Virus record (IMG/VR): IMGVR_UViG_3300045988_142974 | Location: 64,001 to 128,000 of that record | Length of the DNA: 64,000 nt | DNA from: a virus | Reading direction: 5' to 3' (one strand) | Part shown: piece by piece, positions 10,016 through 63,691 of the stretch | Numbering within the stretch: the first letter of the stretch is position 1 | How the letters are laid out: the number at the start of each line of letters is the position of its first letter | Made by a program: the position numbers and the translations under genes | The notes under the pieces: model-generated | What the model saw: only the letters and a program-made list of their open reading frames with translations | Told to the model about the DNA's origin: nothing | Database searches by the model: none

Positions 10016-10100
10016 GCACTATTTCAGTGTATGAAATAGCGGTCACAAGTCCGCAATTTAATTGTCGGTGGAGATAGTATCAAGAGCCGTGGAGGAAACT

Positions 10101-45677: not shown

Positions 45678-45693
45678 TTGAGGAGATGAGAAC

Positions 45694-46466: not shown

Positions 46467-46484
46467 AATGGAAGGAGAATATAT

Positions 46485-47060: not shown

Positions 47061-47072
47061 GAGGATTTAATT

Positions 47073-47654: not shown

Positions 47655-47663
47655 GAGGATTGT

Positions 47664-48413
47664 ATGACAAATTTTATGTTTATTATAATTGTGGTAATTG
47701 TATTAATTGCACTGATTCTTTTCTTTACTCCTTTTGGTAAACAGCTTAGAGTAAAGTTTAAAGGAAGAACAGATGAAGTAATGCGCCAGGATGCACAAAC
47801 ACCAGAAGGTGCTAGAGATTATTACAATGTAGCCATTAGAGAAAAGGAAGAATTTTATAACAAGGCTTCTGCTACATATGCAGAGATTTCAGGAAAGCGT
47901 GACACAGCAGAGAAAGATTTATACCAGGCGAACAAAGATATTATGCGTGTTACACAGCAGATTAACGCTTGTCTTGATGAGAACAAAGAAGATGAAGCAA
48001 TGCAGTATGCAATGAAGAAGTCTACTTTGGAGAATAAGATTAATGTGCTAAAAGATACAATCGAAGAGATGAAAGAAGCACAGGCTCATCAGAAAGACAT
48101 TCGTGATCAGGCAGCCGAAGAATTGCAGAAACTTAAAGAGGAAAAGGAACAGGTTCTTTTTCAGATGGAAGCTGATAGTCAGATTATCGAACTTCATCAG
48201 AGTATGGACAGTCTCAATACCAACAATGAGAGTGATAGAATGCTTGAAAGAGTTCGTGAAGGAGCAAGAAAGACAAGAGAACGTGCAGAAGGAAGTAGAA
48301 TTGCATATGATTCTAGCGCACAGGCTAATGAGAGAAGACTTGCTAATTCTGAAAGAGAGCGCAATGCTCGTCAGATTCTTGATGATATGAAGAGACAGAG
48401 AGGTAATAAGTAA
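47664..48413 (+). CDS. membrane-anchored coiled-coil protein, tentatively PspA/IM30-like (249 aa)
   Basis: N-terminal TM helix FMFIIIVVIVLIALILFF, then long heptad-like helices with a PspA-like pattern (NKEDEAMQYAMKKSTLENKINVLKDTIEEMK ...). The family call is tentative. Confidence 0.6.
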   Translation: MTNFMFIIIVVIVLIALILFFTPFGKQLRVKFKGRTDEVMRQDAQTPEGARDYYNVAIREKEEFYNKASATYAEISGKRDTAEKDLYQANKDIMRVTQQINACLDENKEDEAMQYAMKKSTLENKINVLKDTIEEMKEAQAHQKDIRDQAAEELQKLKEEKEQVLFQMEADSQIIELHQSMDSLNTNNESDRMLERVREGARKTRERAEGSRIAYDSSAQANERRLANSERERNARQILDDMKRQRGNK

Positions 48414-48641: not shown

Positions 48642-50705
48642 ATGGACGGATTTATGATGTTTAAAAAGGCTTTGCAGAAGCACTTCGATGAAATGCAGAA
48701 AGAGGCTACACATTTATTTGAGGTAAATGTAGATAAGGATGAATTATGGAATACATATCTTGATAGCTTTCCTGCCGGTACAAATGAGATTTTCAGAGAG
48801 CGTAGAGAACATGATTGCAGTTGTTGTAGACAGTTTATCAAGAATATTGGTTCTGCTGTCACCATTAAGGATAATCAGATTCACACAATCTGGGAACTGA
48901 ATCTTGGTGATACAACATATCAGCCAGTATGCGATGCACTTGACGCTTTTGTAAAGGCTCATATAGTTACAGATATTTATACAACTAAGTTCCCTAAGAT
49001 TGGTACAGATTTTAATTTTGAGGAAATCAATGGAAAGTCTCATAAGTGGGATCATTTCTTCTTAGAGCTTCCAAGTAAGTTTGTAAATAGAAGTAGCCGT
49101 TCCAACGAGGAAGTTAAAGGACAGTTCAGAGATACAAGAAATGTATTTAAGCGTTCTCTTGATGAGATTACTATGGATGCACTCGATACAATTCTTGAAC
49201 TTATCAACTCAAATACACTTTACAAGGGTGAAGAATGGAAGGGAGTACTCACAGAATTTAAGAAGTATAAGAAGGAATACGATAAGCTGGCTTCTGATAC
49301 TGAAAAGGATTTATATGCTTGGGAGAAGTCGGTAACGGCAGGTATGGCTATCGGTAGAATTAGAAATCATTCTATTGGAACACTTCTTATCAATGTAAGT
49401 GAGGATATGGATCTTGACACAGCAGTTAAGAAGTATGAGCAGATTGTCGCTCCAAGTAATTATAAAAGACCAAAGGCTATTTTTACAAAGAAAATGCTTG
49501 AGGATGCAAAGAAGACCATTACAGAACTCGGTTATATGGATTCATTACAGAGAAGATTTGCTAATCTGAATGATATTACTGTAAATAATGTACTGTTCTC
49601 AAATAAGAGTGCTGCAAGAAGAATGGTAGGTGCAGATGATATTTTTGGTCAGATGGAAAAGGATGTTGCTGTAAGTCCTAAGAAGTTTTCTAAGGTTGAA
49701 GAGATTTCAGCACAGGATTTCATTGATAAGGTACTTCCAACTGCAAAGGAGATTGAAGCTTTTGTAGAGAATAAACATGAGAAGAACTTTGTTTCTATGA
49801 TTGCACCTGTAAATCCAGATGCTAAGACAATGTTTAAATGGAACAATGGATTATCTTGGGCTTATTCAGGAAACATCACCGACTCTGATATGAAGCAGAA
49901 TGTAAAAGCTGCTGGCGGTAATGTTGACGGTGTTCTTAGATTTTCAATCATGTGGAATGAAGGACAGAATGATAACAGCGATCTTGATGCGCATTGTAAA
50001 GAACCTGATGGTAACGAGATTTATTTCAGTAATTGTAGAAAACCAGAAACTTCAAGATGTGGAGGTCAGTTAGATATTGATATTACACGCCCTATGACGC
50101 AGATGGCAGGAAAACCTTCTGTGGAAAATATTACATGGGCAGATATGTCACGTATGAAGCCAGGTGTTTATAAGTTTTTTGTTAATCAGTTTGCAGCGAG
50201 AGGAAGTAAAGGATTTAAGGCAGAAATTGAATTCAATGGTGAGATTTTTGCGTTTGAATACAATAGTCCTGTTTCTGGTAATGTTCAGGTGGCAGAAGTT
50301 ACACTTGACGAGAATGGCAACTTCTCAATTAAGGAAAAGCTGTCTGGAAGTTCATCTATTTCAAGTCGTGAAATTTGGGGTGTAAATACAAATCAGTTTG
50401 TTCCTGTATCAGTAATTAGTTACAGTCCAAACTATTTTGACGAGCAGGATGGAATTGGTCATAGACATTTATTTTTCTTCCTGAAGGATTGTGTAAATAG
50501 CGAAGAGCCTAATGGATTCTATCTTGAGTTCCTTGATAATGATTTAATGAAGCATAAGAGAGTGTTCGAGGCTTTAGGTGCTAAGTGTCATGTAGAAGAT
50601 ACTGATGATCAGCTTTCAGGAATTGGTTTTTCGATGACAAAGAGAGCAGATTTAGTTGTTAAGGTTAAGGGCGCAATAGAGCGTGTAATGAAGATTAAGT
50701 TTTAA
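48642..50705 (+). CDS. large conserved-looking hypothetical protein (687 aa) in the Ter operon
   Basis: Internal ATG of track ORF 48450..50705, after an AGAAGAGG SD. The C-terminal beta-rich region LRFSIMWNEGQNDNSDLDAHCKEPDGNEIYF...GGQLDIDITRP...ENITW...GVYKFFVNQF is reminiscent (from unverified recollection) of DUF2135/YfaP-type domains. Confidence 0.7.
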   Translation: MDGFMMFKKALQKHFDEMQKEATHLFEVNVDKDELWNTYLDSFPAGTNEIFRERREHDCSCCRQFIKNIGSAVTIKDNQIHTIWELNLGDTTYQPVCDALDAFVKAHIVTDIYTTKFPKIGTDFNFEEINGKSHKWDHFFLELPSKFVNRSSRSNEEVKGQFRDTRNVFKRSLDEITMDALDTILELINSNTLYKGEEWKGVLTEFKKYKKEYDKLASDTEKDLYAWEKSVTAGMAIGRIRNHSIGTLLINVSEDMDLDTAVKKYEQIVAPSNYKRPKAIFTKKMLEDAKKTITELGYMDSLQRRFANLNDITVNNVLFSNKSAARRMVGADDIFGQMEKDVAVSPKKFSKVEEISAQDFIDKVLPTAKEIEAFVENKHEKNFVSMIAPVNPDAKTMFKWNNGLSWAYSGNITDSDMKQNVKAAGGNVDGVLRFSIMWNEGQNDNSDLDAHCKEPDGNEIYFSNCRKPETSRCGGQLDIDITRPMTQMAGKPSVENITWADMSRMKPGVYKFFVNQFAARGSKGFKAEIEFNGEIFAFEYNSPVSGNVQVAEVTLDENGNFSIKEKLSGSSSISSREIWGVNTNQFVPVSVISYSPNYFDEQDGIGHRHLFFFLKDCVNSEEPNGFYLEFLDNDLMKHKRVFEALGAKCHVEDTDDQLSGIGFSMTKRADLVVKVKGAIERVMKIKF

Positions 50706-50726
50706 TTAGAAAAGGAGATTATTATT

Positions 50727-51116
50727 ATGACAAACAACGAATTATTTATCAATGCAACAAGAGCAAACTATCAGTTCCCATTCAGAGGAATGATTAACGT
50801 AATTGATTTGTGGGATTTATCTCTCACAAATCTGGACTCAGTGTTTAAGACACTCAATGCAGAAGTAAAGAAGTCTGAGGAAGAAAGTCTTCTAAATACC
50901 AAGTCAAAGGAAGATGAGGAGATTTCTAACAAGATTGAAATTGTTAAGTATATTGTTGACGTGAAGCTGGATGAGAAGAAGAAGAGAGAAGACGCTAAGA
51001 AAAATGCTGAGATGAGACAGAGATTGCTTGAAATCAAAGCTAAGAGACAGGATGCAGCACTTGAGAATATGTCTGATGAGGATCTGGATAAGGCACTTGC
51101 AGAATTAAGTGAGTAA
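50727..51116 (+). CDS. hypothetical charged coiled-coil protein (129 aa)
   Basis: ORF track. GAAAAGGAG SD. Confidence 0.6.
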   Translation: MTNNELFINATRANYQFPFRGMINVIDLWDLSLTNLDSVFKTLNAEVKKSEEESLLNTKSKEDEEISNKIEIVKYIVDVKLDEKKKREDAKKNAEMRQRLLEIKAKRQDAALENMSDEDLDKALAELSE

Positions 51117-51125
51117 TTGTTATAA

Positions 51126-51177
51126 ATATACCATATATAGTATTAAAAATAAACGATATATACTATATATGGTATAT
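51126..51177 (+). terminator. 18-bp perfect AT-rich inverted repeat (ATATACCATATATAGTAT ... ATACTATATATGGTATAT), terminator/operator after the Ter operon
   Basis: Read and paired base by base. 16-nt loop. T-rich tail. Confidence 0.6.
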
Positions 51178-51290
51178 ATTTTACATTAGAATGAATCGCA
51201 CATTTCTTTATGAAATAGATAATTTAATACATATATTAGAAAAATTCAAAAAAGAATGTCCTGAGCATATTGGAGAATGGAGATAACATT

Positions 51291-51839
51291 ATGACGAATA
51301 AAGAGCAAAATAATTTAAGCAAATACATAGCATTAATTCTTAGACACAGACCTGATGTTATTGGTATCGCATTAGATGAACATGGTTGGGCTAACGTGTC
51401 AGATCTATTAAAAGGAATCAATAAAACTCAGACGATTACAATGAAAATGCTTGAAAAAATTGTAGAAGAAGATTCTAAACAGAGATATTCATTTAATCGA
51501 GAGAAGACGCTTATAAGAGCAAATCAAGGTCATTCTATAAAAGTTGATGTAGAATTGAAAGAGTGTATGCCACCAGATATTTTATATCATGGAACGGGTG
51601 TCAAATATTGCTCTTCAATCAATAAACAAGGGTTAATATCCAAGAGTCGTTTATATGTCCATCTATCAAAAGATATTGAAACAGCAACAAATGTTGGCAG
51701 TAGACATGGAGAACCGTTTATTTATAAGGTTCGAGCAAAAGATATGTATAATGATGGATATAAATTCTTTTTATCTCAAAATGGGGTATGGCTTACAAAA
51801 GAAGTACCAATCTGTTATTTAGATGCGTTCTCGAAATAA
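51291..51839 (+). CDS. kptA: RNA 2'-phosphotransferase Tpt1/KptA family (NAD+-dependent)
   Basis: Track ORF 51270..51839. ATG 51291. [48 protein letters not shown] and RLYVHLS match the Tpt1 R-H-R-R catalytic-tetrad context. Confidence 0.85.
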
Positions 51840-51910
51840 GGACAACAAGGACATTCCAAACTTCAAGGAACGAGTTGAAACAGATATATAAAATTTTGGA
51901 GGTTAAGACA

Positions 51911-52939
51911 ATGACAATTGAACAGATTAAGGACAAATTAAAATCAAAAGAGTATGACTTCCTGAGAACAGATAAGAATTTGGGTAACAATATCATTATC
52001 TTAACTCTTGGTGGAAGTTATGCATATGGAACAAATAATGAGGGTAGCGATTTAGATATTCGTGGTTGTGCTTTGAATAGCAAGATGCAGATTCTTACAA
52101 ATGAGAATTTTGAGCAGTTTGTAAACAATGAGACAGACACAACCATTTATGCCTTTAATAAGTTAGTAGCTTTGTTAAGTAATACAAACCCTAACACAAT
52201 AGAAATGCTTGGAAATAAGCCAGAACACTATTTCTATGTATCTCCTATTGGTCAGGAACTTATTGACAATGCGCATTTATTTTTATCAAAGAGAGCTTGT
52301 CATTCGTTTGGCGGTTATGCTAATCAGCAATTATACAGATTAAATCAGAAAGCTGCACATCAGATGTCGCAGTCTGAATTAGAGAAACATATTCTAAAGA
52401 CTCTTGAATTTATGCAGACTGACTTCACAAAGAAATATACACCATATGAAGATGATTCTATGAAATTATATATTGATAAAGCTGTGCAGGAAGGCTACGA
52501 TACAGAAATCTTTATGGATATAAATCTTCATCATTACCCATTAAGAGATTATTGTTCTATGTGGAATGAGCTTCAGAATACAGTTCGTCAATATGGAAAA
52601 ATTGGTAAGAGAAATGAAAAAGCAATTGAACATGGTAAAATTGCTAAACATTCAATGCATCTTATTCGACTGTATATGATGTGCTTAGATATTCTTGAAA
52701 AAGAAAGAATAATTACATACAGAGAAGATGAGCATAATTTACTAATGGATATTCGCAATGGCAAGTATTTGGATAGCAACGATCAGCCAATCCCAGAATT
52801 CTTTGAAATGGTAAATGATTATGAAAAGAGATTAGATTATGCGAAGAAAAACACAAGTCTTCCTGATAATCCTAATTATAAGGCTATCAATGAATTTGTT
52901 GCTAGTGTAAATGAAAGGGTGGTAAAAGGTGAAATCTAA
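51911..52939 (+). CDS. Pol-beta-superfamily nucleotidyltransferase, RlaP/pfam10127-like (RNA-repair-associated) (342 aa)
   Basis: Internal ATG of track ORF 51788..52939, after a TTGGAGG SD. ILTLGGSYAYGTNNEGSDLDIRG is the GS...D.D NTase motif. The family assignment is from recollection of the RlaP signature. Confidence 0.6.
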   Translation: MTIEQIKDKLKSKEYDFLRTDKNLGNNIIILTLGGSYAYGTNNEGSDLDIRGCALNSKMQILTNENFEQFVNNETDTTIYAFNKLVALLSNTNPNTIEMLGNKPEHYFYVSPIGQELIDNAHLFLSKRACHSFGGYANQQLYRLNQKAAHQMSQSELEKHILKTLEFMQTDFTKKYTPYEDDSMKLYIDKAVQEGYDTEIFMDINLHHYPLRDYCSMWNELQNTVRQYGKIGKRNEKAIEHGKIAKHSMHLIRLYMMCLDILEKERIITYREDEHNLLMDIRNGKYLDSNDQPIPEFFEMVNDYEKRLDYAKKNTSLPDNPNYKAINEFVASVNERVVKGEI

Positions 52940-54296
52940 TTTGAAGATTGAAATTCCATCTGGTGCAAATGAAATTATCCATAGTCTACAAAATAATGGA
53001 TATGAAGCTTTCTTAGTCGGAGGATGTGTAAGAGATAGTATTCTTGGCAGACCAATTCACGATTATGACATTACAACTTCTGCCACGCCAGATGAGATGA
53101 TGGAAGTATTCAAGGACAAGAGAATTATTGAAACTGGATTACAGCATGGAACTATCACAATTTTAATTGACGGTGAAGGATATGAATGTACCACTTACAG
53201 AATTGACGGTAATTACTCAGATAGTCGTAGACCTGATAGCGTAACATTTACACGAAATCTTAAAGAAGATTTAAAGCGTAGAGATTTTACAATTAATGCA
53301 ATGGCTTACAATGATGAAGTTGGTCTTATAGATCCGTTTAATGGTATGGAAGATATTAAATACCACAAGATTAGATGTGTTGGCAGAGCAGAAGACAGAT
53401 TTTCAGAAGATGCATTAAGAATTTTACGTGCCATTCGGTTTGCCTCACAGTTGGGATTTGTCCTTGAACCTGATACAGATTGGCATATTTCTAAAATGTA
53501 TAAGAATTTGGAGAATATATCTATTGAAAGGATCAATAGTGAATTTTGTAAAATTGCTGCATCGAGTGATTTCTGTGTACAAATGGTCTTATATCACGAA
53601 GTATTCTCGTTGTTCATTCCTGAAATTAAAGATATGTTTGGTTTTCAACAGAATAATCCATATCACATGTATGATGTATGGAATCATACCGTACATGCAA
53701 TAGAATATTGTGAATCCGATGATTTAGTAACAAGATTGGCAGTATTCTTTCACGATTTTGGTAAGCCACACTGTTATCAAGATGGAGAAGATGGTATCAG
53801 ACACTTTAAAGGTCATGGAAGAGTAAGTGCTGATATGACCAATGAGATTATGAAACGTCTTAGATTTGACAATGATACAAGAGAAAAGGTCATTGAATTA
53901 GTCTATTATCATGATGCTACTTTTGAGGTGGGAAAGAAATATGTCAAGAGATGGCTTAATAAAATTGGAGAAGAACAGTTCAGAAGGTTATTAAATGTTC
54001 GTAGAGCTGATATTAAAGCACAAGCAGACATGGCTCAGGAAACAAGATTACAGAAAATTGATAACATCGAATATATTTTAGAAGAAGTCTTACAGGATGA
54101 TGAATGTTTTTCTCTAAAGGATTTAGCAGTTAATGGAAAAGATGTAATGGATACAATGCTCATTAAAAGTGGAAAAGAAGTTGGCTACTGGCTCAATGAA
54201 ATCTTAACTCGTGTAATAGATGGGAGATTAAAAAATGATAAAGAGGATCTTATTTATTGGATGACTGGTATTACAGATGGTTGGATAGAATATTAA
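52929..54296 (+). CDS. cca: CCA-adding enzyme / tRNA nucleotidyltransferase (class II) with HD domain
   Basis: FLVGGCVRDSILGRPIHDYDITT, RRDFTINAMAY, LRAIRFASQLGF, FFHDFGKPHC (HD). GTG start overlapping the upstream gene's end. Confidence 0.85.
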   Translation: MKSNLKIEIPSGANEIIHSLQNNGYEAFLVGGCVRDSILGRPIHDYDITTSATPDEMMEVFKDKRIIETGLQHGTITILIDGEGYECTTYRIDGNYSDSRRPDSVTFTRNLKEDLKRRDFTINAMAYNDEVGLIDPFNGMEDIKYHKIRCVGRAEDRFSEDALRILRAIRFASQLGFVLEPDTDWHISKMYKNLENISIERINSEFCKIAASSDFCVQMVLYHEVFSLFIPEIKDMFGFQQNNPYHMYDVWNHTVHAIEYCESDDLVTRLAVFFHDFGKPHCYQDGEDGIRHFKGHGRVSADMTNEIMKRLRFDNDTREKVIELVYYHDATFEVGKKYVKRWLNKIGEEQFRRLLNVRRADIKAQADMAQETRLQKIDNIEYILEEVLQDDECFSLKDLAVNGKDVMDTMLIKSGKEVGYWLNEILTRVIDGRLKNDKEDLIYWMTGITDGWIEY

Positions 54297-54306
54297 CGGA
54301 GGTAAT

Positions 54307-55047
54307 ATGTACGAAAAATTAAAAGAATATATAAAAGAATCAAATAATATTGTATTCTTTGGTGGAGCAGGTGTATCAACTGAAAGTGGTATTCCTGATT
54401 TTCGTTCCAAGGATGGATTATATAATCAGCATGACGTTCAGTTTGATAAATACGAACCAGAATATCTTTTGAGTAGAGAATGTTTATATAATAATCCAAA
54501 GATATTTTATGAGTTCTATCGTCAGAAGATGGATACAAGAAATGTTGAACCAAACGTTACTCATAAGGTGCTTGCTAAGATGGAAGAAATAGGTAAGTTG
54601 AAAGCTATTGTAACACAGAATATTGATGGACTTCATCAGAAAGCTGGAAGTAAGAATGTCTTTGAGATTCATGGAACTACTCAGAAGAATTATTGTAGTA
54701 AGTGTAAGATGAAATATCATTCTGATTTCTTGTTTAACACTAAAGATGCTATTCCAAAGTGTGAATGTGGTGGGCTGATTAGACCTGATGTGACTTTATA
54801 CGGAGAGAATCTTCCTAACGAAGCTGTAAATGGAGCAATCAGAGCTATTCGAGATGCTGAAATGTTGATTATTGGTGGCACTTCATTAAAAGTTTATCCA
54901 GCAGCTCATTATATTTCATATTTTAGTGGTAGACATTTGGTTGTTATCAATATGGAGAAAATTCAAGTGTTGTTGAATGAGGATACAGATCTGATGATTG
55001 TTGATTCGTTAGGTAATGTGTTCAGTGAAATTGATAAATGGATGTGA
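54307..55047 (+). CDS. Sir2-family NAD+-dependent protein deacylase/ADP-ribosyltransferase
   Basis: FFGGAGVSTESGIPDFRS, TQNIDGLH, EIHG, Zn module CSKC...CECGG, IGGTSLKVYPAA. Confidence 0.9.
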   Translation: MYEKLKEYIKESNNIVFFGGAGVSTESGIPDFRSKDGLYNQHDVQFDKYEPEYLLSRECLYNNPKIFYEFYRQKMDTRNVEPNVTHKVLAKMEEIGKLKAIVTQNIDGLHQKAGSKNVFEIHGTTQKNYCSKCKMKYHSDFLFNTKDAIPKCECGGLIRPDVTLYGENLPNEAVNGAIRAIRDAEMLIIGGTSLKVYPAAHYISYFSGRHLVVINMEKIQVLLNEDTDLMIVDSLGNVFSEIDKWM

Positions 55048-55060
55048 GGTGAGAGAATAA

Positions 55061-55267
55061 TTGGAATGGATTAAATGTGTCGAAGGACAAATGCCAGAAG
55101 ACGACAAAAGATATGACGGTAAGAAAGTAATTAATGTACTTGTTACTACAAATCGAGGTATGGTAACAAAAGTACAAAGGCAATACTATGATGGGACATG
55201 GTTTTGGGGAAGAATTACTGGCGGTATGAGAGCTTGGATGCCGTTGCCTGAACCATACAAAGAATAA
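55061..55267 (+). CDS. DUF551-like phage protein (68 aa, TTG start)
   Basis: MEWIKCVEGQMPEDD ... VLVTT ... WMPLPEPYKE is the typical DUF551 pattern. GAGGTGAG SD. Confidence 0.6.
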   Translation: MEWIKCVEGQMPEDDKRYDGKKVINVLVTTNRGMVTKVQRQYYDGTWFWGRITGGMRAWMPLPEPYKE

Positions 55268-55281
55268 GTGGGGGTTGAAGA

Positions 55282-55737
55282 GTGAAATTAAAGGATAAAA
55301 TACGAGATAAATTACGTCTTTGGCTGTTAGAAGACGATTTGTTTCAAGTGGAAACAGCTAAAAAATCATATAAGGATGCAATAGAAAAATGCAAAGATGC
55401 AGAGGATAAATATAGATACACCAATATTCAATTATCTGATGCAGCTATTACATATAAAAATTCTCATAAATTAGTTGATGATTGTCATAAAATGATGAAT
55501 TCTATGGTAGACGTTGGAACTGATGTTGGGTTTTATTCTGATGATCATTCTTGGGCAGTTGTGTGTATCAAGGGGCATCCTGAATATGTGAAGCTTATCC
55601 CATTATCACATAGAGATGCACATGAGGTACTTGAGTTTCTAAAACATTTCAAATATTCAGATAGAGTAATTGATTCCCCTTTTGCATTTAGAGATATGGT
55701 TAATAATTGTATCATGGATAAGCCATTTGAAAAGTAG
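55282..55737 (+). CDS. hypothetical protein (151 aa, GTG start)
   Basis: ORF track. Confidence 0.55.
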   Translation: MKLKDKIRDKLRLWLLEDDLFQVETAKKSYKDAIEKCKDAEDKYRYTNIQLSDAAITYKNSHKLVDDCHKMMNSMVDVGTDVGFYSDDHSWAVVCIKGHPEYVKLIPLSHRDAHEVLEFLKHFKYSDRVIDSPFAFRDMVNNCIMDKPFEK

Positions 55738-55802
55738 AGAATAATCTAATATAGAAGCAATTCTATTCACGGCTGATCAGCCAAATTAAGTGAGGTGATA
55801 AA

Positions 55803-56102
55803 GTGAAAAAATATTGGGAAACAGGTGAAAAGAATGATTTTGGTAAGGAATGTTATAAATTACATTTTAGTCAATTTTATGAAGAAGATGATGAAAATGT
55901 AGTAGCTGGTTTTGTACAAGATGAGATAGACGAAAACATATTTATATATGTATCAAAAGAACTAAATGTTGAATATGATACATTGTTTGCAGACAATATA
56001 GAAGATGCAAAGCATCAAATTGAAGACATGTTAATAGACCATTGGAATGATGAGATTGATTATTTAGAAAATCGAATTAAATCATTTCAAAACGAAGAAT
56101 AA
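55803..56102 (+). CDS. hypothetical acidic protein (99 aa, GTG start)
   Basis: ORF track. GTGAGGTGATAAA SD. Confidence 0.55.
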   Translation: MKKYWETGEKNDFGKECYKLHFSQFYEEDDENVVAGFVQDEIDENIFIYVSKELNVEYDTLFADNIEDAKHQIEDMLIDHWNDEIDYLENRIKSFQNEE

Positions 56103-56175
56103 TCATGTATAAAAATTTCTATCTTGGCGATTCAGCCAAATTTTCCAAATAAAAGTAACAAGAAATATTTTTTCC

Positions 56176-56215
56176 TATGGTTTTAGCAGACGTGCAAATT
56201 CCATAGGATTTTACA
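56176..56215 (+). terminator. Hairpin TCCTATGG ... CCATAGGA + TTTTA
   Basis: Read directly. Lies within the Dcm leader region. The antisense track ORF 56119..56328 was rejected. Confidence 0.45.
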
Positions 56216-56295
56216 ACAAAATAATTAAGAAGAAAGGAATTAAGCAGTAACTCCTGGGTAATTATGGTTACGTAACCTCTGTAAAATAGTGTATT

Positions 56296-57219
56296 TTGAC
56301 AGAGAATAATGAAAAAAATAATTCTCAAGGGCTACGAGTATTAAGTTTATGTGGTGGCGTTGAAACAGGATTGTATGCGTTACAGAAGCTCGGAATACCT
56401 ATAAGAGAATATCATACATATGAAATTTTGCCAGAAGCCATAGCAGTTTCTCAGTACCATTTTCCGTTTGTGGTACATCATGGCGATTTATATGAAGCGG
56501 ATTTTGAAGAGTTTAAAGGATTTGATTTACTGTTGGCAGGAACTTGTTGCCAGTCACTTTCAAGAGTGCGAATTGAAAGTAAAGAGGTCAATAATGGTCT
56601 TGATGGTAAGTCAGGAATTTTCTTTAAAGCAATTGAGTGTCTTAGGGCAATTCAGCCCAAATATTTCATGTTTGAAAATGTAATACCAAGTAGTGACGAA
56701 GATCTGAAGACAATGACAGAATGCATTGGTGTAGAACCTATTTTGATTAATTCAGGAAAATTTTCTGCGCAGAGTCGTGAAAGATATTATTGGACAAACA
56801 TACCATTAGGTAAATTACCTGATAAATCTCCATTAGTTTTAAAAGATATTATGGAGAATAGTGTAGATGAGAAATATTTCTATAAGAAAGATTTTGAAAT
56901 CTTGGATATGAGTAAACGTGTATGTGCAGAGTTAAAAGTTAATTCTATGGAAATGAATAGAAGAATTTATAATCCAGATTTTAAGTGCTGCACATTAACT
57001 TGTATAAATGGTGGATATCATGAAAAGAAAGTATTAGATAGTAGCAGACCACGAAAACTTACAGAAGTTGAATATGAAAGATTACAGGGATTACCTGATA
57101 ATTTTACAAAAGTTCAGCTTAATGGTCGTTGGTTATCATACTCAAAAAGATGTAGTTTGATGGGCAATGGATGGAATGAATCTACTGTTGAATGGATCTT
57201 GAGTGGGTTAAGAGAATAA
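56296..57219 (+). CDS. DNA (cytosine-5)-methyltransferase (orphan; TTG start, no SD)
   Basis: Motif I LSLCGGVETG, IV LLAGTCCQSLS, VI FMFENV, VIII QSRERYYW, X MGNGWNE. TTG 56296 is the only canonical start upstream of motif I. Confidence 0.85.
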   Translation: MTENNEKNNSQGLRVLSLCGGVETGLYALQKLGIPIREYHTYEILPEAIAVSQYHFPFVVHHGDLYEADFEEFKGFDLLLAGTCCQSLSRVRIESKEVNNGLDGKSGIFFKAIECLRAIQPKYFMFENVIPSSDEDLKTMTECIGVEPILINSGKFSAQSRERYYWTNIPLGKLPDKSPLVLKDIMENSVDEKYFYKKDFEILDMSKRVCAELKVNSMEMNRRIYNPDFKCCTLTCINGGYHEKKVLDSSRPRKLTEVEYERLQGLPDNFTKVQLNGRWLSYSKRCSLMGNGWNESTVEWILSGLRE

Positions 57220-57272
57220 CATAATATGAAGTTCGCAGGAAAGCGGAATTTCTTGTGATGAAAGGAGAAAAT

Positions 57273-57995
57273 ATGTATCCAGAATACGATGATTTTTATG
57301 AGCCAAGTGAGGGCGAAATGTTTTTTGATGAAATGAAAGAAAAGTTCAGAGAGATTTTACGTGAAGATGTAAATTCTGAAATCAGTAGATTAACAAAAGA
57401 AAATGCAGAATTAGGACAAAAGGTTAAAGAGTATAATGATAAAAATTTAAATCTTTCTTGTAGAGAAAGAGATTTGCAGTACAAGATTGACAATTACAAG
57501 CGAGAGGTAGAGAAAGACTTTTACAATAAAACAATGGAAGAAGTTTTTGAGAAACTTTTAGAAGACTCAGAAGTGTGGTATGCAGAACGTGTTCCTCATG
57601 AGAAACCAAAATGTAATTTATGTAATGAGGAAAGAAAACTTATTGCAGTATATCCAAATGGTGAAACTGTAACCAAGGAGTGTGAATGTTCTCGACCAGC
57701 ATATATTTATGAGCCAGTAATTTCATTGAATAAAGAGATTAAATTTCATAAGGCGTATAAGCCAAGATATAGTGATAAAAAGAAAGTCTATTTTACTAAA
57801 AATTACAAACCAAACAAGGATTATGCAGATGCATACGATTATTACAGTGAATTCAGAATAGAAAATATTTTTGATGATTTTAATGATGATGTAATTCTAT
57901 ATCACAATGGAAAAAGCTATGGAGAAAAAATTGCATTCAGAAGTAAAGATGCTTGTCAGAAATATTGTGATTGGCTTAATAAGGAGAATAAGTAA
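57273..57995 (+). CDS. hypothetical protein with coiled coil and Cys cluster (240 aa)
   Basis: Track ORF 57255..57995. ATG 57273 follows the AAAGGAGAAAAT SD. Confidence 0.6.
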   Translation: MYPEYDDFYEPSEGEMFFDEMKEKFREILREDVNSEISRLTKENAELGQKVKEYNDKNLNLSCRERDLQYKIDNYKREVEKDFYNKTMEEVFEKLLEDSEVWYAERVPHEKPKCNLCNEERKLIAVYPNGETVTKECECSRPAYIYEPVISLNKEIKFHKAYKPRYSDKKKVYFTKNYKPNKDYADAYDYYSEFRIENIFDDFNDDVILYHNGKSYGEKIAFRSKDACQKYCDWLNKENK

Positions 57996-58487
57996 ATGAT
58001 AGTTGGTGTAAAAATATGTGAAGCGAAAGATACAATTAAGAAATATGAAGACCTTGGGTATAAGTTTGTTAGTGAAGAAAATGTAGGTGAAGGATATTTA
58101 AAACTTATATTCAGAGGTTCAATTGTTCCAGAAGAGAATAATATAACAGATATTCAATTCCATGAGGGCGATTTTATAGAAAATAAGGATGGGAAAATTG
58201 GATATATTTCATCCATTTGTCATTGTGATGAGTGTAAAAAACGTGGATTTTTTGAACCAACTATTACATATCTTGATGGAACACCAGATTACATTAGCAA
58301 TTATTCTGTTAAAACTATTTCGTCTGATTATAAACAGATTGGGATTCAGAAGTTTTCAACAGAAGATATATTGAGAAATAAAATAGCTGCACTTGAGAAA
58401 GAGAATAAAGAATTAAAGGAAAAAGTAAATTATTTTATTAATAGAAACGAACTATTAAGGTTGTATATAGGAAGGAATGATAAGTAA
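57996..58487 (+). CDS. hypothetical protein (163 aa)
   Basis: ORF track. Abuts the neighbours without gaps. Confidence 0.6.
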   Translation: MIVGVKICEAKDTIKKYEDLGYKFVSEENVGEGYLKLIFRGSIVPEENNITDIQFHEGDFIENKDGKIGYISSICHCDECKKRGFFEPTITYLDGTPDYISNYSVKTISSDYKQIGIQKFSTEDILRNKIAALEKENKELKEKVNYFINRNELLRLYIGRNDK

Positions 58488-59270
58488 ATGGCATATATAA
58501 AACAATATTGGCAGAATAAAGAACAAAGAGCGACAATTGCTCGTGAACACACAAAAGAGATGCGGAATAAATATGGTCGTTGTATTCAAACTTCAATTTT
58601 GGGTACAAAAATTTATGATACAAATTCATTTAATAGGGATTTTGAAGAGAATATCGAAGATAAAGATACCAAGATTATTGTAGAGGATATTGATAGTGTA
58701 GGTGCTGTAATGAAATACGGCAATCCAAGTACAGCAGTTCTTAATTTTTCTTCATATAAAAATCCAGGTGGAATGTTTTTAAATGGTAGTAAGGCACAGG
58801 AAGAGTGCTTATGTCACGAATCATTCTTATACAATGTGTTGAGTCAGTTTGTATTAAAGTTTTATGATTGGAATAATCGACATAAGAATAAGGCTTTATA
58901 TTTGAATAGAGGATTATTTTCTCCCGGTGTTTGGTTCTTTAGAGAGAATAGCCATGTAGAGTGTAGTGTTATTACTTGTGCTGCTCCAAATAAGTCGGCT
59001 GCTCAGAAATATCAGAACGTGTCAGACGAAGAGAATACTAAAGCATTAAGAAGTCGAATTAAATTTGTTCTTAATATGGCGAAAGACAACAATGTGAGCA
59101 CTCTTATTTTAGGAGCTTATGGATGTGGAGTATTTGGGCAAGACGCAACAGAAGTAGCGAATATATTTAAAGAATATTTAACTACTACTCATAAATGCTT
59201 CGATACTGTTGTATTTGCTGTTCCAAATGGCAGAGATGGTAACTATGAGAAGTTTGTAAAAGTATTTTAA
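58488..59270 (+). CDS. Macro-domain protein of the TIGR02452/DUF2263 (microbial PARG-like) type
   Basis: AVLNFSSYKNPGGMFLNGSKAQEECLCHESFLY and LILGAYGCGVFGQDATEVA match the family signature (LNFAS..PGGG...AQEE ... GAxGCGxF). Confidence 0.8.
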   Translation: MAYIKQYWQNKEQRATIAREHTKEMRNKYGRCIQTSILGTKIYDTNSFNRDFEENIEDKDTKIIVEDIDSVGAVMKYGNPSTAVLNFSSYKNPGGMFLNGSKAQEECLCHESFLYNVLSQFVLKFYDWNNRHKNKALYLNRGLFSPGVWFFRENSHVECSVITCAAPNKSAAQKYQNVSDEENTKALRSRIKFVLNMAKDNNVSTLILGAYGCGVFGQDATEVANIFKEYLTTTHKCFDTVVFAVPNGRDGNYEKFVKVF

Positions 59271-60582: not shown

Positions 60583-61389
60583 TTGAAACTACAAAATGAT
60601 AAGTATTACACACCAATAGAATTGGCGAATTACTGTTGGGATAAGGTTTTTGAAGTTGTTGGCGAAGAAAATATATCAGAGATTATTGAGCCTAGTGTTG
60701 GGAATGGCAGTTTTCTTCATCATGCAGAGCAACTACCACATTTTGCGTATGATATTGAACCTGAGTGCGAATCTAATTTTACTCATATCTTTAAGCAGGA
60801 TTATTTAAGTGCTGATATAAAGTATCTTTGGGGAAGGCTGATAATAGGAAATCCACCATACGGAAGATGTTTAAATATGGCACAGAAATTTTTTAAGAAG
60901 TCAGTTGAAATTGCAGATACAATTGCATTTATTCTTCCTATAAGTCAATTGAATAACACAAGGTCAATGTATGAGTTTGATTTGGTATATAGTGAAGATT
61001 TAGGTATCCAGCATTATACAGATAGAGATTTACATTGTTGCTTTAATATTTATCGCAGACCTGATAGTGGAGAATTAAATAGTAAACCAGTCGCAAAATT
61101 AAAGGATGTCACTATATATCGGCAGGATAGCAAGGGATATAACGAGAAAGATTTTGATGTTCGTATGTGCTATTGGGGTGATGGATCTGCTGGAAAGATA
61201 TTAAAGGATGATGAACATTATTCGGCAGAATATAAAATCAAGATAAATAATGAAGAATTAAAAGAAGATATTATTGAAGTGCTTACTACATTTGATTGGA
61301 AGGAATATCTAAATTGTATTGCAATGAGAAAAATACAACAATTTCACATTGTCGATGTCTTAAAGAAGAATATCAAAGGAATTAAATAA
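60583..61389 (+). CDS. N6-adenine DNA methyltransferase (NPPY motif; orphan; TTG start, no SD)
   Basis: DKYYTPIELA (motif X-like), IEPSVGNGSF (motif I), IIGNPPYGR (motif IV). Confidence 0.8.
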   Translation: MKLQNDKYYTPIELANYCWDKVFEVVGEENISEIIEPSVGNGSFLHHAEQLPHFAYDIEPECESNFTHIFKQDYLSADIKYLWGRLIIGNPPYGRCLNMAQKFFKKSVEIADTIAFILPISQLNNTRSMYEFDLVYSEDLGIQHYTDRDLHCCFNIYRRPDSGELNSKPVAKLKDVTIYRQDSKGYNEKDFDVRMCYWGDGSAGKILKDDEHYSAEYKIKINNEELKEDIIEVLTTFDWKEYLNCIAMRKIQQFHIVDVLKKNIKGIK

Positions 61390-61458: not shown

Positions 61459-62334
61459 ATGTTAGAGATTAACAAAATATACAACGAAGATTGCTTTGAA
61501 GGTATGAAAAAGATTGATGATAAGTCAATAGATTTTATTTTTACGGATCTTCCTTATAATACGACTAATAATTCTTGGGAATGTGAAATGCCGTTAAATG
61601 ATTATGTCGAGTTATCAGGTCAATATTTTTATGAAACAGATTTATTCAAGTTAGCTCAAGTAACAAATAGCAGTCTCGAATATACAAGAGATTGGTTCTA
61701 CGAGAATAAGAAAGATGGCTTATGGAATCATTACAATCGAATCATCAAAGATAACGGTTGTATTGCACTATGGGCGCAGTCACCTTTTGATAAGAAACTC
61801 GCTTGTAGTAATGAAAAGCTATATCGCTATGAATGGATTATCGAAAAAACCAAAGCAACTGGTCATCTAAATGCAAAGAAAATGCCTATGAAGGCACACG
61901 AAAATGTCTTAATTTTCTATAAGAAACTCCCTACTTACAATCCACAAATGACAGAAGGACATACACCTGTTCATTCTTATACAAAACATACAACAGATGG
62001 TAGCTGTTATGGTGCTACAAAGACTGGTATTTCAGGTGGTGGTAGTACACAAAGATACCCAAGAGATGTTCAGCAGTTCAAGTGGGACACTCAGAAAAGT
62101 AGCTTACATCAATGTCAAAAGCCTGTTGAAGCGTGTGAGTATTTTATTAAAACCTATACTAATCCAGGAGATTTAGTTCTTGATTCGTGTGCAGGAAGTT
62201 GTACCACTGCAGTTGCAGCTTTGAATACAGGTAGAAATTACATATGTTTTGAGAAGGACAAGGATATTTTTGAGGTTGGAAGTAAGAGAGTAGCTGAATA
62301 TGCTAATCAGGATTTATTGATAAGTGCAACTTAA
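61459..62334 (+). CDS. N4/N6 DNA methyltransferase (pfam01555-like, beta class; orphan)
   Basis: IDFIFTDLPYNT (the D(P/L)PY motif IV first), then C-terminal GDLVLDSCAGSCTTAVAALNTGRNYICFEKD (motif I). Confidence 0.8.
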   Translation: MLEINKIYNEDCFEGMKKIDDKSIDFIFTDLPYNTTNNSWECEMPLNDYVELSGQYFYETDLFKLAQVTNSSLEYTRDWFYENKKDGLWNHYNRIIKDNGCIALWAQSPFDKKLACSNEKLYRYEWIIEKTKATGHLNAKKMPMKAHENVLIFYKKLPTYNPQMTEGHTPVHSYTKHTTDGSCYGATKTGISGGGSTQRYPRDVQQFKWDTQKSSLHQCQKPVEACEYFIKTYTNPGDLVLDSCAGSCTTAVAALNTGRNYICFEKDKDIFEVGSKRVAEYANQDLLISAT

Positions 62335-62407: not shown

Positions 62408-63142
62408 ATGAAATATATGGGTTCAAAATCTCGTATAGTTGATAATATTTTACCGATTATTCAAGAAAGATTGCGAGATTATAATATCAAAACATACATA
62501 GAGCCATTTTGCGGCGGCTGTAATGTAATCGACAAAGTTCAATGTGATATAAAAATCGCTTCTGACAATCATAAATATCTTATTGAAATGTTCAAGAATC
62601 TAAATCAGATTCAAAATCTCCCAGAATTTATTACAAAAGAACATTACTCAGATGTAAGAAAGTGTTTTAATAAAGGATTATCCCAATATCCAGATTGGTA
62701 TATTGGTGCAGTTGGCTTTCTTTCAAGCTATAACGGAAGATTCTTTGATGGAGGTTACTCAGGTATCGTATATACAAAAGCTGGAACTGAAAGAAATTAT
62801 TACGATGAAGCTAAGAGAAATTTGTTAGAGCAGATTCCAAGGTTAGAAGATATTCAATTCCAATGTGGAGATTATAAAGAGTTATATTCTGATAAAGTTG
62901 ACTGCTTATTTTATTGCGATATTCCATATAAGGGTACGAAACAGTATGGATCAAGTAAGAATTTTGATTATGACAGATTCTGGAATTGGGCTGAGAAGAT
63001 GAGCGAGAAAAATATTGTCTTAGTCAGTGAGCATGAAGCTCCTTCTGGATGGGAATGTATTTGGCAACAGGAAGTCAAGAGAACGATTGACAATACGAAG
63101 CAAGTTAAAGCAGTAGAAAAGTTATTTGAAATTAGAGAATAA
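62408..63142 (+). CDS. Dam-type (D12 class) N6-adenine DNA methyltransferase (orphan)
   Basis: MKYMGSKSRIVDNILPII, IEPFCGGCNV, FYCDIPY. Confidence 0.8.
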   Translation: MKYMGSKSRIVDNILPIIQERLRDYNIKTYIEPFCGGCNVIDKVQCDIKIASDNHKYLIEMFKNLNQIQNLPEFITKEHYSDVRKCFNKGLSQYPDWYIGAVGFLSSYNGRFFDGGYSGIVYTKAGTERNYYDEAKRNLLEQIPRLEDIQFQCGDYKELYSDKVDCLFYCDIPYKGTKQYGSSKNFDYDRFWNWAEKMSEKNIVLVSEHEAPSGWECIWQQEVKRTIDNTKQVKAVEKLFEIRE

Positions 63143-63548: not shown

Positions 63549-63691
63549 CAAGAAATTTTGGTTTCAAGGTTTGTCACGAAAACTATATAATATTCGGGAT
63601 AAAAAAGAGAATATATCAATGTAATTACAATTAAGGAAAGGAAAGACGTTCACATGTGAGTAAAGCTGCGCAGCTACTATGGTGAACAAAT

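Follow-up and report, generated by a model that had tools for sequence, protein, structure and literature searches.

A tentative ligase-independent tRNA 3'-tail repair module in a hypervariable phage island of NAD+/ADP-ribose genes

Gene families of the locus analysed here recur in several described systems. The networks reported from large phages by Iyer, Burroughs, Anantharaman and Aravind (Viruses 2021, PMC7824862; 2022, PMC9503650) include the same families, KptA/Tpt1, RlaP, CCA, sirtuin, macro and NADAR, and were read as means of countering host attacks on tRNA and NAD+. In these networks RlaP "mirrors RNA ligases", while KptA and sirtuin are placed at a pre-ligation stage with 2H, cREC or HAD. 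Pseudomonas RtcB-RlaP-RtcA operons (Carruthers, Fatma and Huang, bioRxiv 2025, PMC12776372) likewise possess a PF10127 nucleotidyltransferase (NTase), for which addition of 1-2 NMP to an RNA 3'-OH was demonstrated. NAD+ reconstitution by phages is represented by NARP1, NARP2 and NARP3 (bioRxiv 10.1101/2024.02.11.579819; PMC13464706). Large temperate Clostridioides difficile phages of the phiCD211/phiCDIF1296T type carry the closest annotated matches to our Tpt1 (53%) and NTase (44%), and have RtcB and peptidyl-tRNA hydrolase genes as well. Multifunctional CCA-adding enzymes with an HD domain, of the E. coli Cca type, have an established role in tRNA 3'-end repair.

The present locus lies in a 64-kb stretch of viral DNA (the window). 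We tentatively interpret it, with a probability of about 45%, as a ligase-independent tRNA 3'-tail repair module with an NTase-CCA core, placed within a hypervariable NAD+/ADP-ribose counter-defence island. An earlier note on this DNA had proposed a single counter-defence kit, either for tRNA repair or for adding and removing ADP-ribose. The theme was supported and was also found in the islands of relatives (DHH, macro, NADAR, PncA, NAMPT-like, NadE), but the single kit was not. The region is a mosaic accessory island in which the repair genes are intact, and Sir2 and PARG are exchangeable inserts.

Gene identities and setting

All five ORFs were recovered at exactly the coordinates given in the earlier note, and every family assignment exceeded the threshold of its curated model (Pfam/NCBIfam-type profiles), confirming the five identities claimed there. 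Assignments rest on profiles and motifs, and for the NTase also on an AF2 model.

51291..51839, + strand: Tpt1/KptA, NAD+-dependent RNA 2'-phosphotransferase, 182 aa
51911..52939, + strand: RlaP-family (PF10127) Pol-beta-type NTase, 342 aa
52929..54296, + strand: class-II CCA-adding tRNA nucleotidyltransferase with an HD phosphohydrolase domain, 455 aa
54307..55047, + strand: CobB-type sirtuin (NAD+-dependent protein deacylase type), 246 aa
58488..59270, + strand: TIGR02452/microbial-PARG-type macro-domain protein, 260 aa

Tpt1 scored 159 bits against PF01885 (cut-off 26) and 245 against NF002014 (cut-off 239), and its tetrad R18, H19, R76 and R120 was complete. The NTase scored 52.3 bits against PF10127 (RlaP, cut-off 23), a model that matched 81 of 82 diverse homologues, and kept the motifs G35-S36, D47-x-D49 and D76. 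Its AF2 model (pLDDT 95) yielded fold matches, and the protein is predicted to be a two-domain NTase. The CCA enzyme matched PolyA_pol (134 bits, cut-off 23), HD (31.2, cut-off 22), tRNA_NucTran2_2 (48.7, cut-off 27) and NF009814 (328, cut-off 290). Its head motifs (GGCVRD 31-36, D45-x-D47, RRD 117-119, EDALR 160-164) and HD-domain residues (H253, H275-D276, H328-D329) were present. Sir2 scored 190 bits against PF02146 (cut-off 24) and 309.5 against NF001752 (cut-off 221), with GAGVS 20-24, TQNID 103-107, the catalytic His122 and the zinc ligands C130/C133/C152/C154. The macro protein scored 190.7 bits against TIGR02452 (cut-off 50) and 94.4 against PF10021 (cut-off 23.5), and had the QEE motif (G94-G95-x8-Q104-E105-E106) and a GAYGCGVF loop (209-216). 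The catalytic residues that the note had singled out for checking, R-H-R-R of Tpt1 and the His of Sir2, were therefore intact, as were the macro motifs.

Tpt1 and the NTase gene are separated by 71 nt, and the CCA and Sir2 genes by 10 nt. The last 11 nt of the NTase gene are also the first 11 nt of the CCA gene, and the two overlapping genes are probably translationally coupled. Sir2 has its own GGAGG ribosome-binding site, and the PARG gene lies 3.4 kb and six genes from it. The whole + strand between about 8 and 64 kb is packed just as closely and in one direction, so within this 56-kb array a neighbouring position says little by itself. Promoter and terminator consensus scans of the window gave matches at chance level only, and no tRNA genes were found in it. 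The phage origin was borne out by IMG/VR relatives, PHROG matches and the integrase, ParB and antirepressor genes of the window. The region is best read as a hypervariable accessory island, present here in one of its alleles, in a phage of about 100-170 kb, temperate or a phage-plasmid, from gut Lachnospiraceae.

Conserved core, cassettes and recombination

In the roughly 190 related loci, what is conserved is the NTase-CCA core and not the five-gene set. Of 74 close IMG/VR loci, 67 had a CCA gene no more than 1.2 kb downstream of the NTase, and in 59 the two abutted; this pairing spanned NTase identities from 99% to 65% on varied flanking backgrounds. In 80 distant loci from Clostridia genomes (NTase 57-79% identity), a class-II tRNA-NTase gene adjoined in about 22 of 79. 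These adjoining genes fell into three sequence clusters, upstream or downstream, and besides c119 they were the sole recurrent direct neighbour. The two families were also 1.6-2 kb apart in the Vequintavirinae (rV5-like) phages SSBI34 and Mydo. The linkage is not obligate, as 7 of the 74 close loci and about 70% of the distant ones had no adjacent CCA gene. A DHH phosphoesterase gene followed the CCA gene in 50 loci.

Sir2 and PARG are independent, swappable NAD+/ADP-ribose cassettes and not obligate partners. Sir2 was present in 6 of 63 and 4 of 25 loci (about 10%) and PARG in 4 of 63 and 0 of 25 (about 5%). By the note's own yardstick of co-conservation, these two genes do not support a single five-gene kit. 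The window remains homologous at the nucleotide level to four sister contigs bearing the Tpt1-RlaP-CCA trio only up to the CCA stop codon (window 54295), and most relatives had the DHH phosphoesterase and NAD+ salvage genes in place of Sir2 and PARG. The macro protein was sporadic among relatives and is rare in phages. CobB-type Sir2 was found in 136 phage records, most numerously from Vibrio, and the nearest phage homologues came from human-faecal "Bacteriophage sp." contigs and Staphylococcus, Listeria and Enterococcus phages. The earlier view that Sir2 is unusual in such an operon was thus overstated, sirtuins in phage RNA-repair neighbourhoods having been reported in 2022 (PMC9503650). Defence-type Sir2 models did not match the window Sir2, which, from its equivalog-level match, appears to be a CobB-type deacylase and not the macro-linked SirTM or a defence type.

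The trio itself sits in a variable slot with the following neighbours and remnants.

48642..51116, + strand: DUF8224 protein (PF26675/phrog_1735, about 687 aa) and phrog_2018 protein (129 aa), from profiles and relatives
51118..51185, no strand: inverted repeat with 26-nt arms and an 18-bp perfect core (51126-51143/51160-51177), from folding, shuffles and alignment
51209..51283, + strand: c21 pseudogene remnant, comprising the final 25 codons of a 79-aa gene (tblastn, 92% identity over 25 aa; deletion in the alignment)
51823..51882, + strand: c18 (phrog_8839) remnant, 5' end (tblastn, 75% over 20 aa; alignment)

The DUF8224 and phrog_2018 pair was the usual left neighbour of the slot in relatives. 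The inverted repeat, between the phrog_2018 gene and Tpt1, occurred once in the window; its match count was reached by 0 of 100 shuffles and its RNA fold was -23.7 kcal/mol (z = -4.96). In the alignment type A, type B and the window all share it as the conserved left edge of the slot, where it may act as a terminator, an attenuator or a protein-binding site.

This slot can be filled in IMG/VR relatives by the NTase or by Tpt1 plus two companion genes, but both occurred together in 0 of 88 loci; Tpt1 adjoined CCA in 24 of 29 Tpt1-type loci. In the ancestral Tpt1-type cassette c21 precedes Tpt1, and c18, a 183-aa gene, was always 3' of Tpt1 in type-A relatives. The window is a recombinant, with Tpt1 flanked by truncated remnants of both companions. 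The C-terminal residues of Tpt1 run on into the c18 remnant, the recombination joint to the NTase cassette; similar remnants lay upstream of the NTase in two relatives (L076 and L078). Judging from these sequences, the juxtaposition of Tpt1 and NTase is a recent joint, which, with the breakpoint at 54295, also speaks against one unit. The identical Tpt1 protein was found on 19 contigs, and the trio persists on at least 19 at 93-98% nucleotide identity. The alternation of Tpt1 and NTase could mean redundancy or function-free allelic replacement.

Proposed pathway and alternatives

In the counter-defence role that we infer, a host or competitor system would trim or block tRNA 3' ends. Such damage could come from tail-cleaving nucleases, for example Cas12a3, which trims tRNAs by 2-4 nt from the 3' end, as far as the discriminator base (PMC12851939), from metal-independent RNases leaving 2',3'-cyclic or 2'/3'-phosphate ends, or from toxSAS/CapRel-type 3'-pyrophosphorylation. 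Healing of phosphorylated ends would then fall to the HD domain of the CCA enzyme and, in the window lineage, perhaps also to Tpt1 with NAD+; PMC6573784 describes some Tpt1 enzymes that strip terminal 2'/3' phosphates. In most relatives the DHH phosphoesterase encoded after CCA may serve. The RlaP-type NTase would restore 1-2 nucleotides, e.g. N73, after trimming beyond CCA, and the CCA-adding enzyme would rebuild CCA, making the tRNA chargeable again. With the lesion at the tRNA 3' end, the NTase-CCA pair would need no ligase. That no tRNA genes lie in the window counts against this pathway, as do the loci where the NTase has no adjacent CCA gene.

An unlikely though still appreciable alternative is that the genes have no joint function and are independent morons gathered in a recombination hot spot, each with a single role such as tRNA maintenance by a spare CCA enzyme, deacylation or ADP-ribosyl hydrolysis, adjacency being due to cassette shuffling. 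The island is indeed highly mosaic, with dozens of alternative gene strings per slot, Band_7/flotillin or metallophosphoesterase genes replacing Tpt1, NTase and CCA in some relatives, and DNA methyltransferases and DUF551-type small genes scattered among the others. The pseudogene remnants at the joints, the sporadic Sir2 and PARG and the breakpoint exactly at the CCA stop codon point the same way. However, the NTase-CCA overlap and linkage were kept over wide divergence, with three CCA clusters, in both orders and in an unrelated phage subfamily, and the island content is enriched in NAD+/ADP-ribose and RNA-end enzymes and not random.

Canonical heal-and-seal repair of anticodon-loop breaks, with Tpt1, RlaP and phosphoesterases preparing ends for a ligase elsewhere in the genome and CCA incidental, seems improbable. 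RlaP was defined through its association with RNA ligases (PMC12776372; PMC7824862), KptA has been given such a role in phages (PMC9503650), phiCD211 encodes both RtcB and KptA, and the NTase of Bacillus phage KLEB27-3 lies amid RNA ligase and polynucleotide kinase genes. In three loci (L125, L178 and L185) about 5 kb at most separates an RtcB gene from the NTase-CCA pair, in L125 in the order RtcB-phosphoesterase-DUF8224 pair-NTase-CCA. Two family members, L283 and L294, have an RNA ligase cassette (PF09414) whose KxDG motif is intact. However, the slot of L283 has no Tpt1, NTase or CCA, and the right end of our window matches four relatives with no ligase in their next 10 kb. No family contig was among the best 80 RtcB-bearing IMG/VR contigs, and the recurrent NTase partner is CCA, not a ligase. 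In the 64-kb window, neither RNA ligase nor polynucleotide kinase was found among ORFs of at least 250 aa scanned with Pfam, then with PHROGs where Pfam was silent, and tblastn with the family RtcB, PF09414 ligase and PTH2 gave no match, in agreement with the note's statement that no ligase or kinase-phosphatase is in view. Less probable still is a writer/eraser system in which Tpt1 marks 5'-phosphorylated nucleic-acid ends, or Sir2 marks proteins, and the PARG-type macro protein erases the mark, the phage protecting its own nucleic acids or reversing host ART toxins. PMC12678800, PMC10415124 and PMC11833690 describe 5'-phosphate ADP-ribosylation by Tpt1/KptA and macro-type reversal; the active sites of Tpt1, Sir2 and the macro protein are intact, and macro and NADAR genes recur among relatives. 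Yet PARG accompanied Tpt1 in 0 of 25 IMG/VR Tpt1 loci and 1 of 5 trio contigs, and both its distance from Sir2 and the CobB-type assignment of the latter argue against this reading.

Comparison with described systems

Compared with the networks of Iyer et al., the window has no ligase, 2H or PNK, its Sir2 is CobB-type whereas theirs belongs to a proteobacterial-phage clade, and its NTase is partnered by CCA. The activity demonstrated for Pseudomonas RlaP is the one that 3'-tail repair would need, but the window NTase matched just the N-terminal half of the Pfam model (positions 11-144 of 249), had no sequence-level match in the PDB, and has CCA and not RtcB/RtcA as its genomic partner. NARP pathway-like genes were found 2-6 kb downstream of CCA in relatives, as PncA, Prs-like, NAMPT-like, macro, NADAR and NadE or as PncA, PncB, NadD-like and NadE. 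None of these NAD+ reconstitution genes was found in the window, where Tpt1 and Sir2, both NAD+-consuming, and a PARG-type hydrolase occur instead. In phiCD211-type phages the corresponding genes are scattered across a stretch exceeding 10 kb and, unlike those of the window, do not adjoin, and there was no nucleotide-level similarity. With E. coli Cca (NCBIfam "multifunctional CCA addition/repair protein") the window enzyme shares the class-II head and the HD domain (H...HD...HD). However, its best curated match was the Bacillus-type NF009814, and it is phage-encoded and apparently coupled to an RlaP-type NTase.

Gene content and predicted activities

The earlier note had read five genes, encoding Tpt1, an RlaP-like nucleotidyltransferase (NTase), a CCA-adding enzyme (CCA), Sir2 and a macro protein, as a single counter-defence kit. 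All five ORFs were found at the coordinates it named, and each scored above the curated threshold of its family. The catalytic residues it had queried, the Tpt1 tetrad and the Sir2 histidine, were present in alignments to solved structures.

Genes of the proposed kit, with family scores
51291-51839, + strand: Tpt1/KptA (PF01885, 159.3 bits, cut-off 26; NF002014, 245.2, cut-off 239)
51911-52939, + strand: RlaP-family NTase (PF10127, 52.3 bits, cut-off 23; phrog_388)
52929-54296, + strand: class-II CCA-adding enzyme with HD domain (NF009814, 327.8, cut-off 290; PolyA_pol, 134 bits)
54307-55047, + strand: CobB-type sirtuin (NF001752, 309.5, cut-off 221)
58488-59270, + strand: TIGR02452 / microbial-PARG macro protein (TIGR02452, 190.7, cut-off 50)

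The Tpt1 and NTase genes were separated by 71 nt, the NTase and CCA genes overlapped by 11 nt, and Sir2 followed CCA after 10 nt. The first product is a member of the Tpt1/KptA RNA 2′-phosphotransferase family with an intact tetrad; its predicted activity is NAD+-dependent removal of an RNA 2′-phosphate or terminal phosphate, or ADP-ribosylation of 5′-phosphates. Its residues R18, H19, R76 and R120 aligned to the LRH, RANQGHS and SRxxVHLS motifs of structures 7kw8 and 6e3a. The CCA enzyme possessed the head motifs GGxVRD (31-36), DxD (45-47), RRD (117-119) and EDxxR (160-164), and the H...HD...HD residues of its HD domain were intact. The equivalog match favours CCA addition as its predicted activity over CC-adding, A-adding or poly(A) activity.

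The NTase belongs to a large family (5,087 clusters at 50% identity). Its PF10127 match covered only model positions 11-144 of 249, and 81 of 82 diverse homologues matched the Pfam RlaP family. The Pol-beta motifs G35-S36, D47/D49 and D76 were invariant or nearly so across the 82. An AF2 model (pLDDT 95) had the form of a two-domain Pol-beta-type NTase. In fold searches its best PDB matches were kanamycin-NTase-type enzymes, which were weak (TM 0.3-0.4), and among viral models its nearest matches were phage proteins named “nucleotidyltransferase / RNA repair pathway protein” (TM 0.5-0.6). Fold comparison of this model with the PDB turned up no RlaP structure, and sequence and profile searches of the PDB with the NTase and with the protein clusters c119 and c18 from related loci returned nothing informative. 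RlaP enzymes extend RNA 3′-OH ends by one or two NMPs (PMC12776372).

Sir2 is a CobB-type deacylase by its equivalog-level match, with predicted activity. It carried the GAGVS and TQNID motifs, zinc cysteines C130/C133/C152/C154, and H122 aligned to H116 of Sir2Tm. Defence-type Sir2 proteins (Thoeris ThsA, DSR, SIR2-HerA) were rejected, as there was no PADLOC match at E <= 0.001; the comparison with Dsr1 gave only E = 0.0078 and 13.9 bits (cut-off 1400). The protein has 246 aa in a single domain, with no fused sensor domain. In the PARG-type protein, the sequence G94-G95-M-x7-Q104-E105-E106 has Met in place of the third Gly of the GGG-X6-8-QEE signature; the QEE signature and the GAYGCGVF loop align to the PARGs of D. 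radiodurans and T. curvata. Such proteins are rare in phages, with 20 records, mostly from Lak megaphages and Bacillus phage G. A SirTM-macro arrangement was also rejected, PARG lying 3.4 kb and six genes from Sir2 and not adjacent to it, and being present in only 2 of about 12 Sir2-bearing IMG/VR loci, plus L287.

The NTase-CCA pair and the alleles of the slot

The ORFs of 113 related loci were clustered for comparison of co-conservation. A CCA gene lay at most 1.2 kb downstream of the NTase in 67 of 74 loci, and abutted or overlapped it in 59 of the 74. The linkage spanned NTase identities from 99% to 65% and several unrelated flanking contexts, and the two genes form a robust conserved unit. 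The linkage is non-obligate, being absent in most distant loci. Among 80 further loci from GTDB genomes (NTase identity 57-79%), the neighbours were almost all singletons. Class-II tRNA-NTase genes stood beside the NTase, upstream or downstream, in about 22 of 79 of these loci and fell into three sequence clusters. In the Vequintavirinae phages SSBI34 and Mydo, 1.6-2 kb separate a PF10127 NTase from a tRNA nucleotidyltransferase encoded on the same strand. No CCA or NTase was found within 4 kb of Tpt1 in Erwinia jumbo phages, where the annotation was uninformative.

The sole recurrent direct neighbour of the NTase besides CCA was c119, a cluster of 320-aa proteins repeatedly inserted between the two genes (L110 11029-11991; also in loci L111-L116, L144, L149, L152, L181, L182 and L198). 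It was the NTase neighbour in 6 of the roughly 79 GTDB loci, and it had no Pfam, PHROG or PDB match.

To the left, the variable position holding these genes (the slot) is bordered by a conserved protein pair and a conserved hairpin.

Features at the left side of the slot
48642-51116, + strand: DUF8224 protein (PF26675 / phrog_1735, ~687 aa) and 129-aa phrog_2018 protein; also at L125 7873-9912 and L280 5001-7469
51118-51185: inverted repeat, unique, with 26-nt arms and an 18-bp perfect stem (RNA fold z = -5.0)
51209-51283: last 25 codons of c21
51823-51882: first ~20 codons of c18, joined to the NTase upstream region

Alleles of the slot in IMG/VR
Type A: c21 (79 aa), Tpt1, c18 (183 aa, phrog_8839), CCA
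Type B: NTase, CCA, sometimes with c119 (320 aa) between them

Every slot allele keeps the inverted repeat, which follows the phrog_2018 stop codon and may act as a terminator or as a recombination boundary of the slot. The DUF8224 pair was present in 555 phage records, with 59% and 49% identity to Bacillus Bastillevirinae. In a bacterial MAG (L125) it stands between RtcB-phosphoesterase and NTase-CCA, which hints at a link to RNA repair. An AlphaFold model of DUF8224, built from 13 near-identical sequences, reached a pLDDT of 34, and a sequence search of the PDB was empty.

Tpt1 and the NTase occurred together in none of 88 informative IMG/VR loci. Since remnants of c21 and c18 lie beside Tpt1 in the window, the Tpt1-NTase juxtaposition is a product of recombination or deletion and not an ancestral operon. 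The exact junction pattern had no match in IMG/VR. An exact-protein look-up in ENA/Logan recovered the Tpt1 of the window, including its junction-specific C-terminus, on 19 contigs, which rules out that the Tpt1-RlaP-CCA trio is unique to the window. The five of these contigs that were shown (L286-L290) all read DUF8224, 129-aa protein, Tpt1, RlaP, CCA. L286, L288, L289 and L290 were about 93% identical to the window in nucleotides from DUF8224 to the last CCA base (54295) and then diverged. Only L287, at 98-99.6% identity to the window, carried the Sir2...PARG string. In its place, L286 and L289 encoded PncA, Prs-like and NAMPT-like proteins, a 153-aa protein matching the macro cluster c39, NADAR and NadE. 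L288 encoded PncA and a Prs-like protein up to the point where its contig ends, and the part of L290 that was covered showed none of these genes.

Several relatives carried complete modules for NAD+ salvage or reconstitution a few kb downstream of CCA (L286 14959-19395, L289 11870-16306, L291-L293 and L294 1439-6451). One, NARP1-like, consisted of PncA, Prs-like, NAMPT-like, macro, NADAR and NadE genes, and the other of PncA, DUF5662, PncB, NadD-like and NadE. Neither was present in the window.

The element and its accessory genes

From about 8 kb on, the window consists of small genes arrayed in one direction, with about 32% G+C. It carries ParB, an integrase, a Bro/ANT antirepressor and many PHROG families. 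Searched at the nucleotide level, the region had no match among INPHARED phages. More than 100 relatives were found among IMG/VR contigs, most being 90-185 kb long and sampled chiefly from the human gut; ENA/Logan assemblies added many others. Genomes of Lachnospiraceae and other Clostridia encoded NTase homologues (57-79% identity), and the DUF8224 protein had a 90% match named Eubacterium ramulus. The closest annotated phages were the C. difficile phiCD211 group (130 kb; Tpt1 53%, NTase 44%). Given the phage genes, the gut relatives, the Lachnospiraceae homologues and the likeness to phiCD211, the element belongs among the large temperate phages or phage-plasmids of gut Lachnospiraceae. Scans for consensus promoters and terminators scored no better than chance and defined no transcription units, and no tRNA genes were found in the window.

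Other features of the window
6305-7423, - strand: 372-aa RelA/SpoT-domain protein, PADLOC candidate defence family PDC-S33 (E = 4e-120)
9980-10054, + strand: type-P5 twister ribozyme (RF02684, 49.3 bits, gathering score 37.6, E = 3e-7), the sole Rfam match in the window
12096-12914, + strand: MYG1/UPF0160-family protein (PF03690, E = 6e-26), unusual for a phage
43077-48413, + strand: Ter-like stress cassette with a P-type cation ATPase, three tandem TerD paralogues and a PspA/IM30-like protein
56296-57219: C5 DNA methyltransferase
60583-61389: phrog_5172/799 methyltransferase-like
61459-62334: N4/N6 DNA methyltransferase
62408-63142: Dam
63549-64000: second Dam-like gene, running off the window end

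The Ter-like cassette is variable: about 15 of 110 related loci have it, and the sister contigs L286-L290 lack it. Small DUF551-type genes are interspersed among the methyltransferases, and this pile-up, also variable between relatives, looks like an anti-restriction arsenal.

The RelA/SpoT-domain protein aligned over its full length with CapRel SJ46 (PDB 7ztb, E = 8e-40), a fused toxin-antitoxin encoded by a prophage, which pyrophosphorylates tRNAs. Pyrophosphorylation of tRNAs by CapRel/toxSAS toxins has been reported (PMC9712102). The protein being a CapRel homologue, a relative of toxins acting on the tRNA 3′ end shares the element with tRNA 3′-end repair genes. If it served to regenerate tRNA tails against immunity, as in the more specific proposal below, the repair module might also guard the phage from its own CapRel-type toxin or from such toxins of rival phages.

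Proposed tail repair and its alternatives

As the earlier note had it, neither an RNA ligase nor a polynucleotide kinase was found in the window (ORFs of at least 250 aa scanned; tblastn with the relatives' ligases). With an overlapping RlaP-CCA pair and no ligase, repair of the tRNA 3′ tail is the most economical reading. We tentatively prefer ligase-free repair of this tail by the pair, assisted by healing enzymes, at a probability of about 0.45. Ends would be healed by the HD domain, together with Tpt1 in the lineage of the window or, in 50 relatives, with a DHH phosphoesterase instead. RlaP would put back nucleotides lost beyond CCA, and the CCA enzyme would then remake the tail. CCA-adding enzymes remake CCA on tRNAs ending at the discriminator base, and in bacterial CCA enzymes the HD domain has phosphohydrolase activity. 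Removal of terminal 2′/3′ phosphates with NAD+ by a subset of Tpt1 enzymes has been reported (PMC6573784). Cas12a3 immunity shortens tRNAs at the 3′ end by 2-4 nt, as far as the discriminator (PMC12851939).

A more specific proposal, which we consider unlikely, is that an RlaP-type NTase and HD-CCA, with optional Tpt1 or DHH phosphoesterase, form a dedicated system for ligase-free regeneration of tRNA tails. It would counter immune systems that shorten or block tRNA acceptor ends, with Cas12a3-type tail nucleases and pyrophosphorylation by CapRel/toxSAS as the candidates. RlaP would restore the discriminator nucleotide, and Tpt1 would gain a natural bacterial substrate in 2′/3′-phosphorylated tRNA termini.

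Canonical heal-and-seal repair with a distant ligase is quite unlikely. Ligases do occur near the NTase elsewhere, as in Bacillus phage KLEB27-3, where it lies amid RNA ligase, PNK, phosphoesterase and Prs/NAPRTase genes. RtcB was within about 5 kb of the NTase only in L125 (in the order RtcB, phosphoesterase, DUF8224, NTase, CCA) and, transcribed divergently, in L178 and L185. Among the best 80 RtcB loci listed from an IMG/VR profile scan of at most 600 stretches, no contig name was shared with the phage family. Two relatives encode, 4-5 kb beyond the Dam and 140-aa genes, an RNA ligase (PF09414) whose KxDG motif is intact, in the following cassette.

Ligase cassette of two relatives (HNH, PF09414 ligase, PTH2 or metallophosphoesterase)
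L283 13624-16482
L294 14004-16183

The ligase-bearing L283 has flotillin in the slot and not Tpt1, NTase or CCA. The last 900 nt of the window match, from end to end, L291 (96.5%) and L292, L293 and L295 (about 93.5%), and in these four the 10 kb that follow encode no ligase. It is therefore possible that this phage has one elsewhere in its genome, with nothing seen here in favour of it. The set of T4 Pnkp and Rnl-type ligase was absent from the 64-kb window, as was the RNA ligase neighbourhood that defines RlaP, the neighbour of the NTase being CCA.

In IMG/VR, Sir2 was found within 10 kb in 6 of 63 NTase loci and 4 of 25 Tpt1 loci, and PARG in 4 of 63 and 0 of 25. These two genes are thus not co-conserved with the others, and the proposal of one five-gene kit fails for them; they fit the NAD+/ADP-ribose theme of the hypervariable island and are not obligate partners of the repair genes. 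An ADP-ribosylation writer/eraser pair is improbable. That all these genes are unrelated morons in a hot spot is somewhat unlikely; the turnover of the island and the recombinant junction speak for it, and the recurrent NTase-CCA pair speaks against it.

All five families are already known, and the general idea dates from publications of 2016-2022; in large phages, KptA, RlaP, CCA-adding enzymes, sirtuins and macro domains have been set against host attack on tRNA and NAD+ (PMC7824862, PMC9503650). In the literature beyond the 2016 RlaP-defining paper, where a prior mention is possible, we found no RlaP-CCA pair described as a recurrent ligase-less unit, no Tpt1-phrog_8839 cassette as an allelic alternative and no recombinant Tpt1-RlaP-CCA trio. 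Ligase-free tail repair, if true, would be the first proposed phage counter-measure to a newly recognised class of defences, those attacking the tRNA acceptor end, and would offer a tractable setting for the long-standing question of the role of Tpt1 in bacteria and phages. At the level of cassettes, enzymes that consume NAD+, rebuild it or act on RNA ends replace one another at one hot spot of this common family of large phages from the human gut, a picture useful for predicting anti-defence content.

Among known systems, NARP1 and NARP2 (Adps Prs-like and Namat NAMPT-like, or NadV and Nmnat) were rejected for the window, where tblastn with the relatives' genes was empty; NARP genes are present in the sister contigs L286, L288 and L289. 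Unlike in the window, Tpt1 and NTase are non-adjacent in phiCD211, which also encodes RtcB and peptidyl-tRNA hydrolase. If tail repair by the RlaP-CCA pair is true, the RlaP family would gain a second context, apart from RtcB/Rnl ligation.
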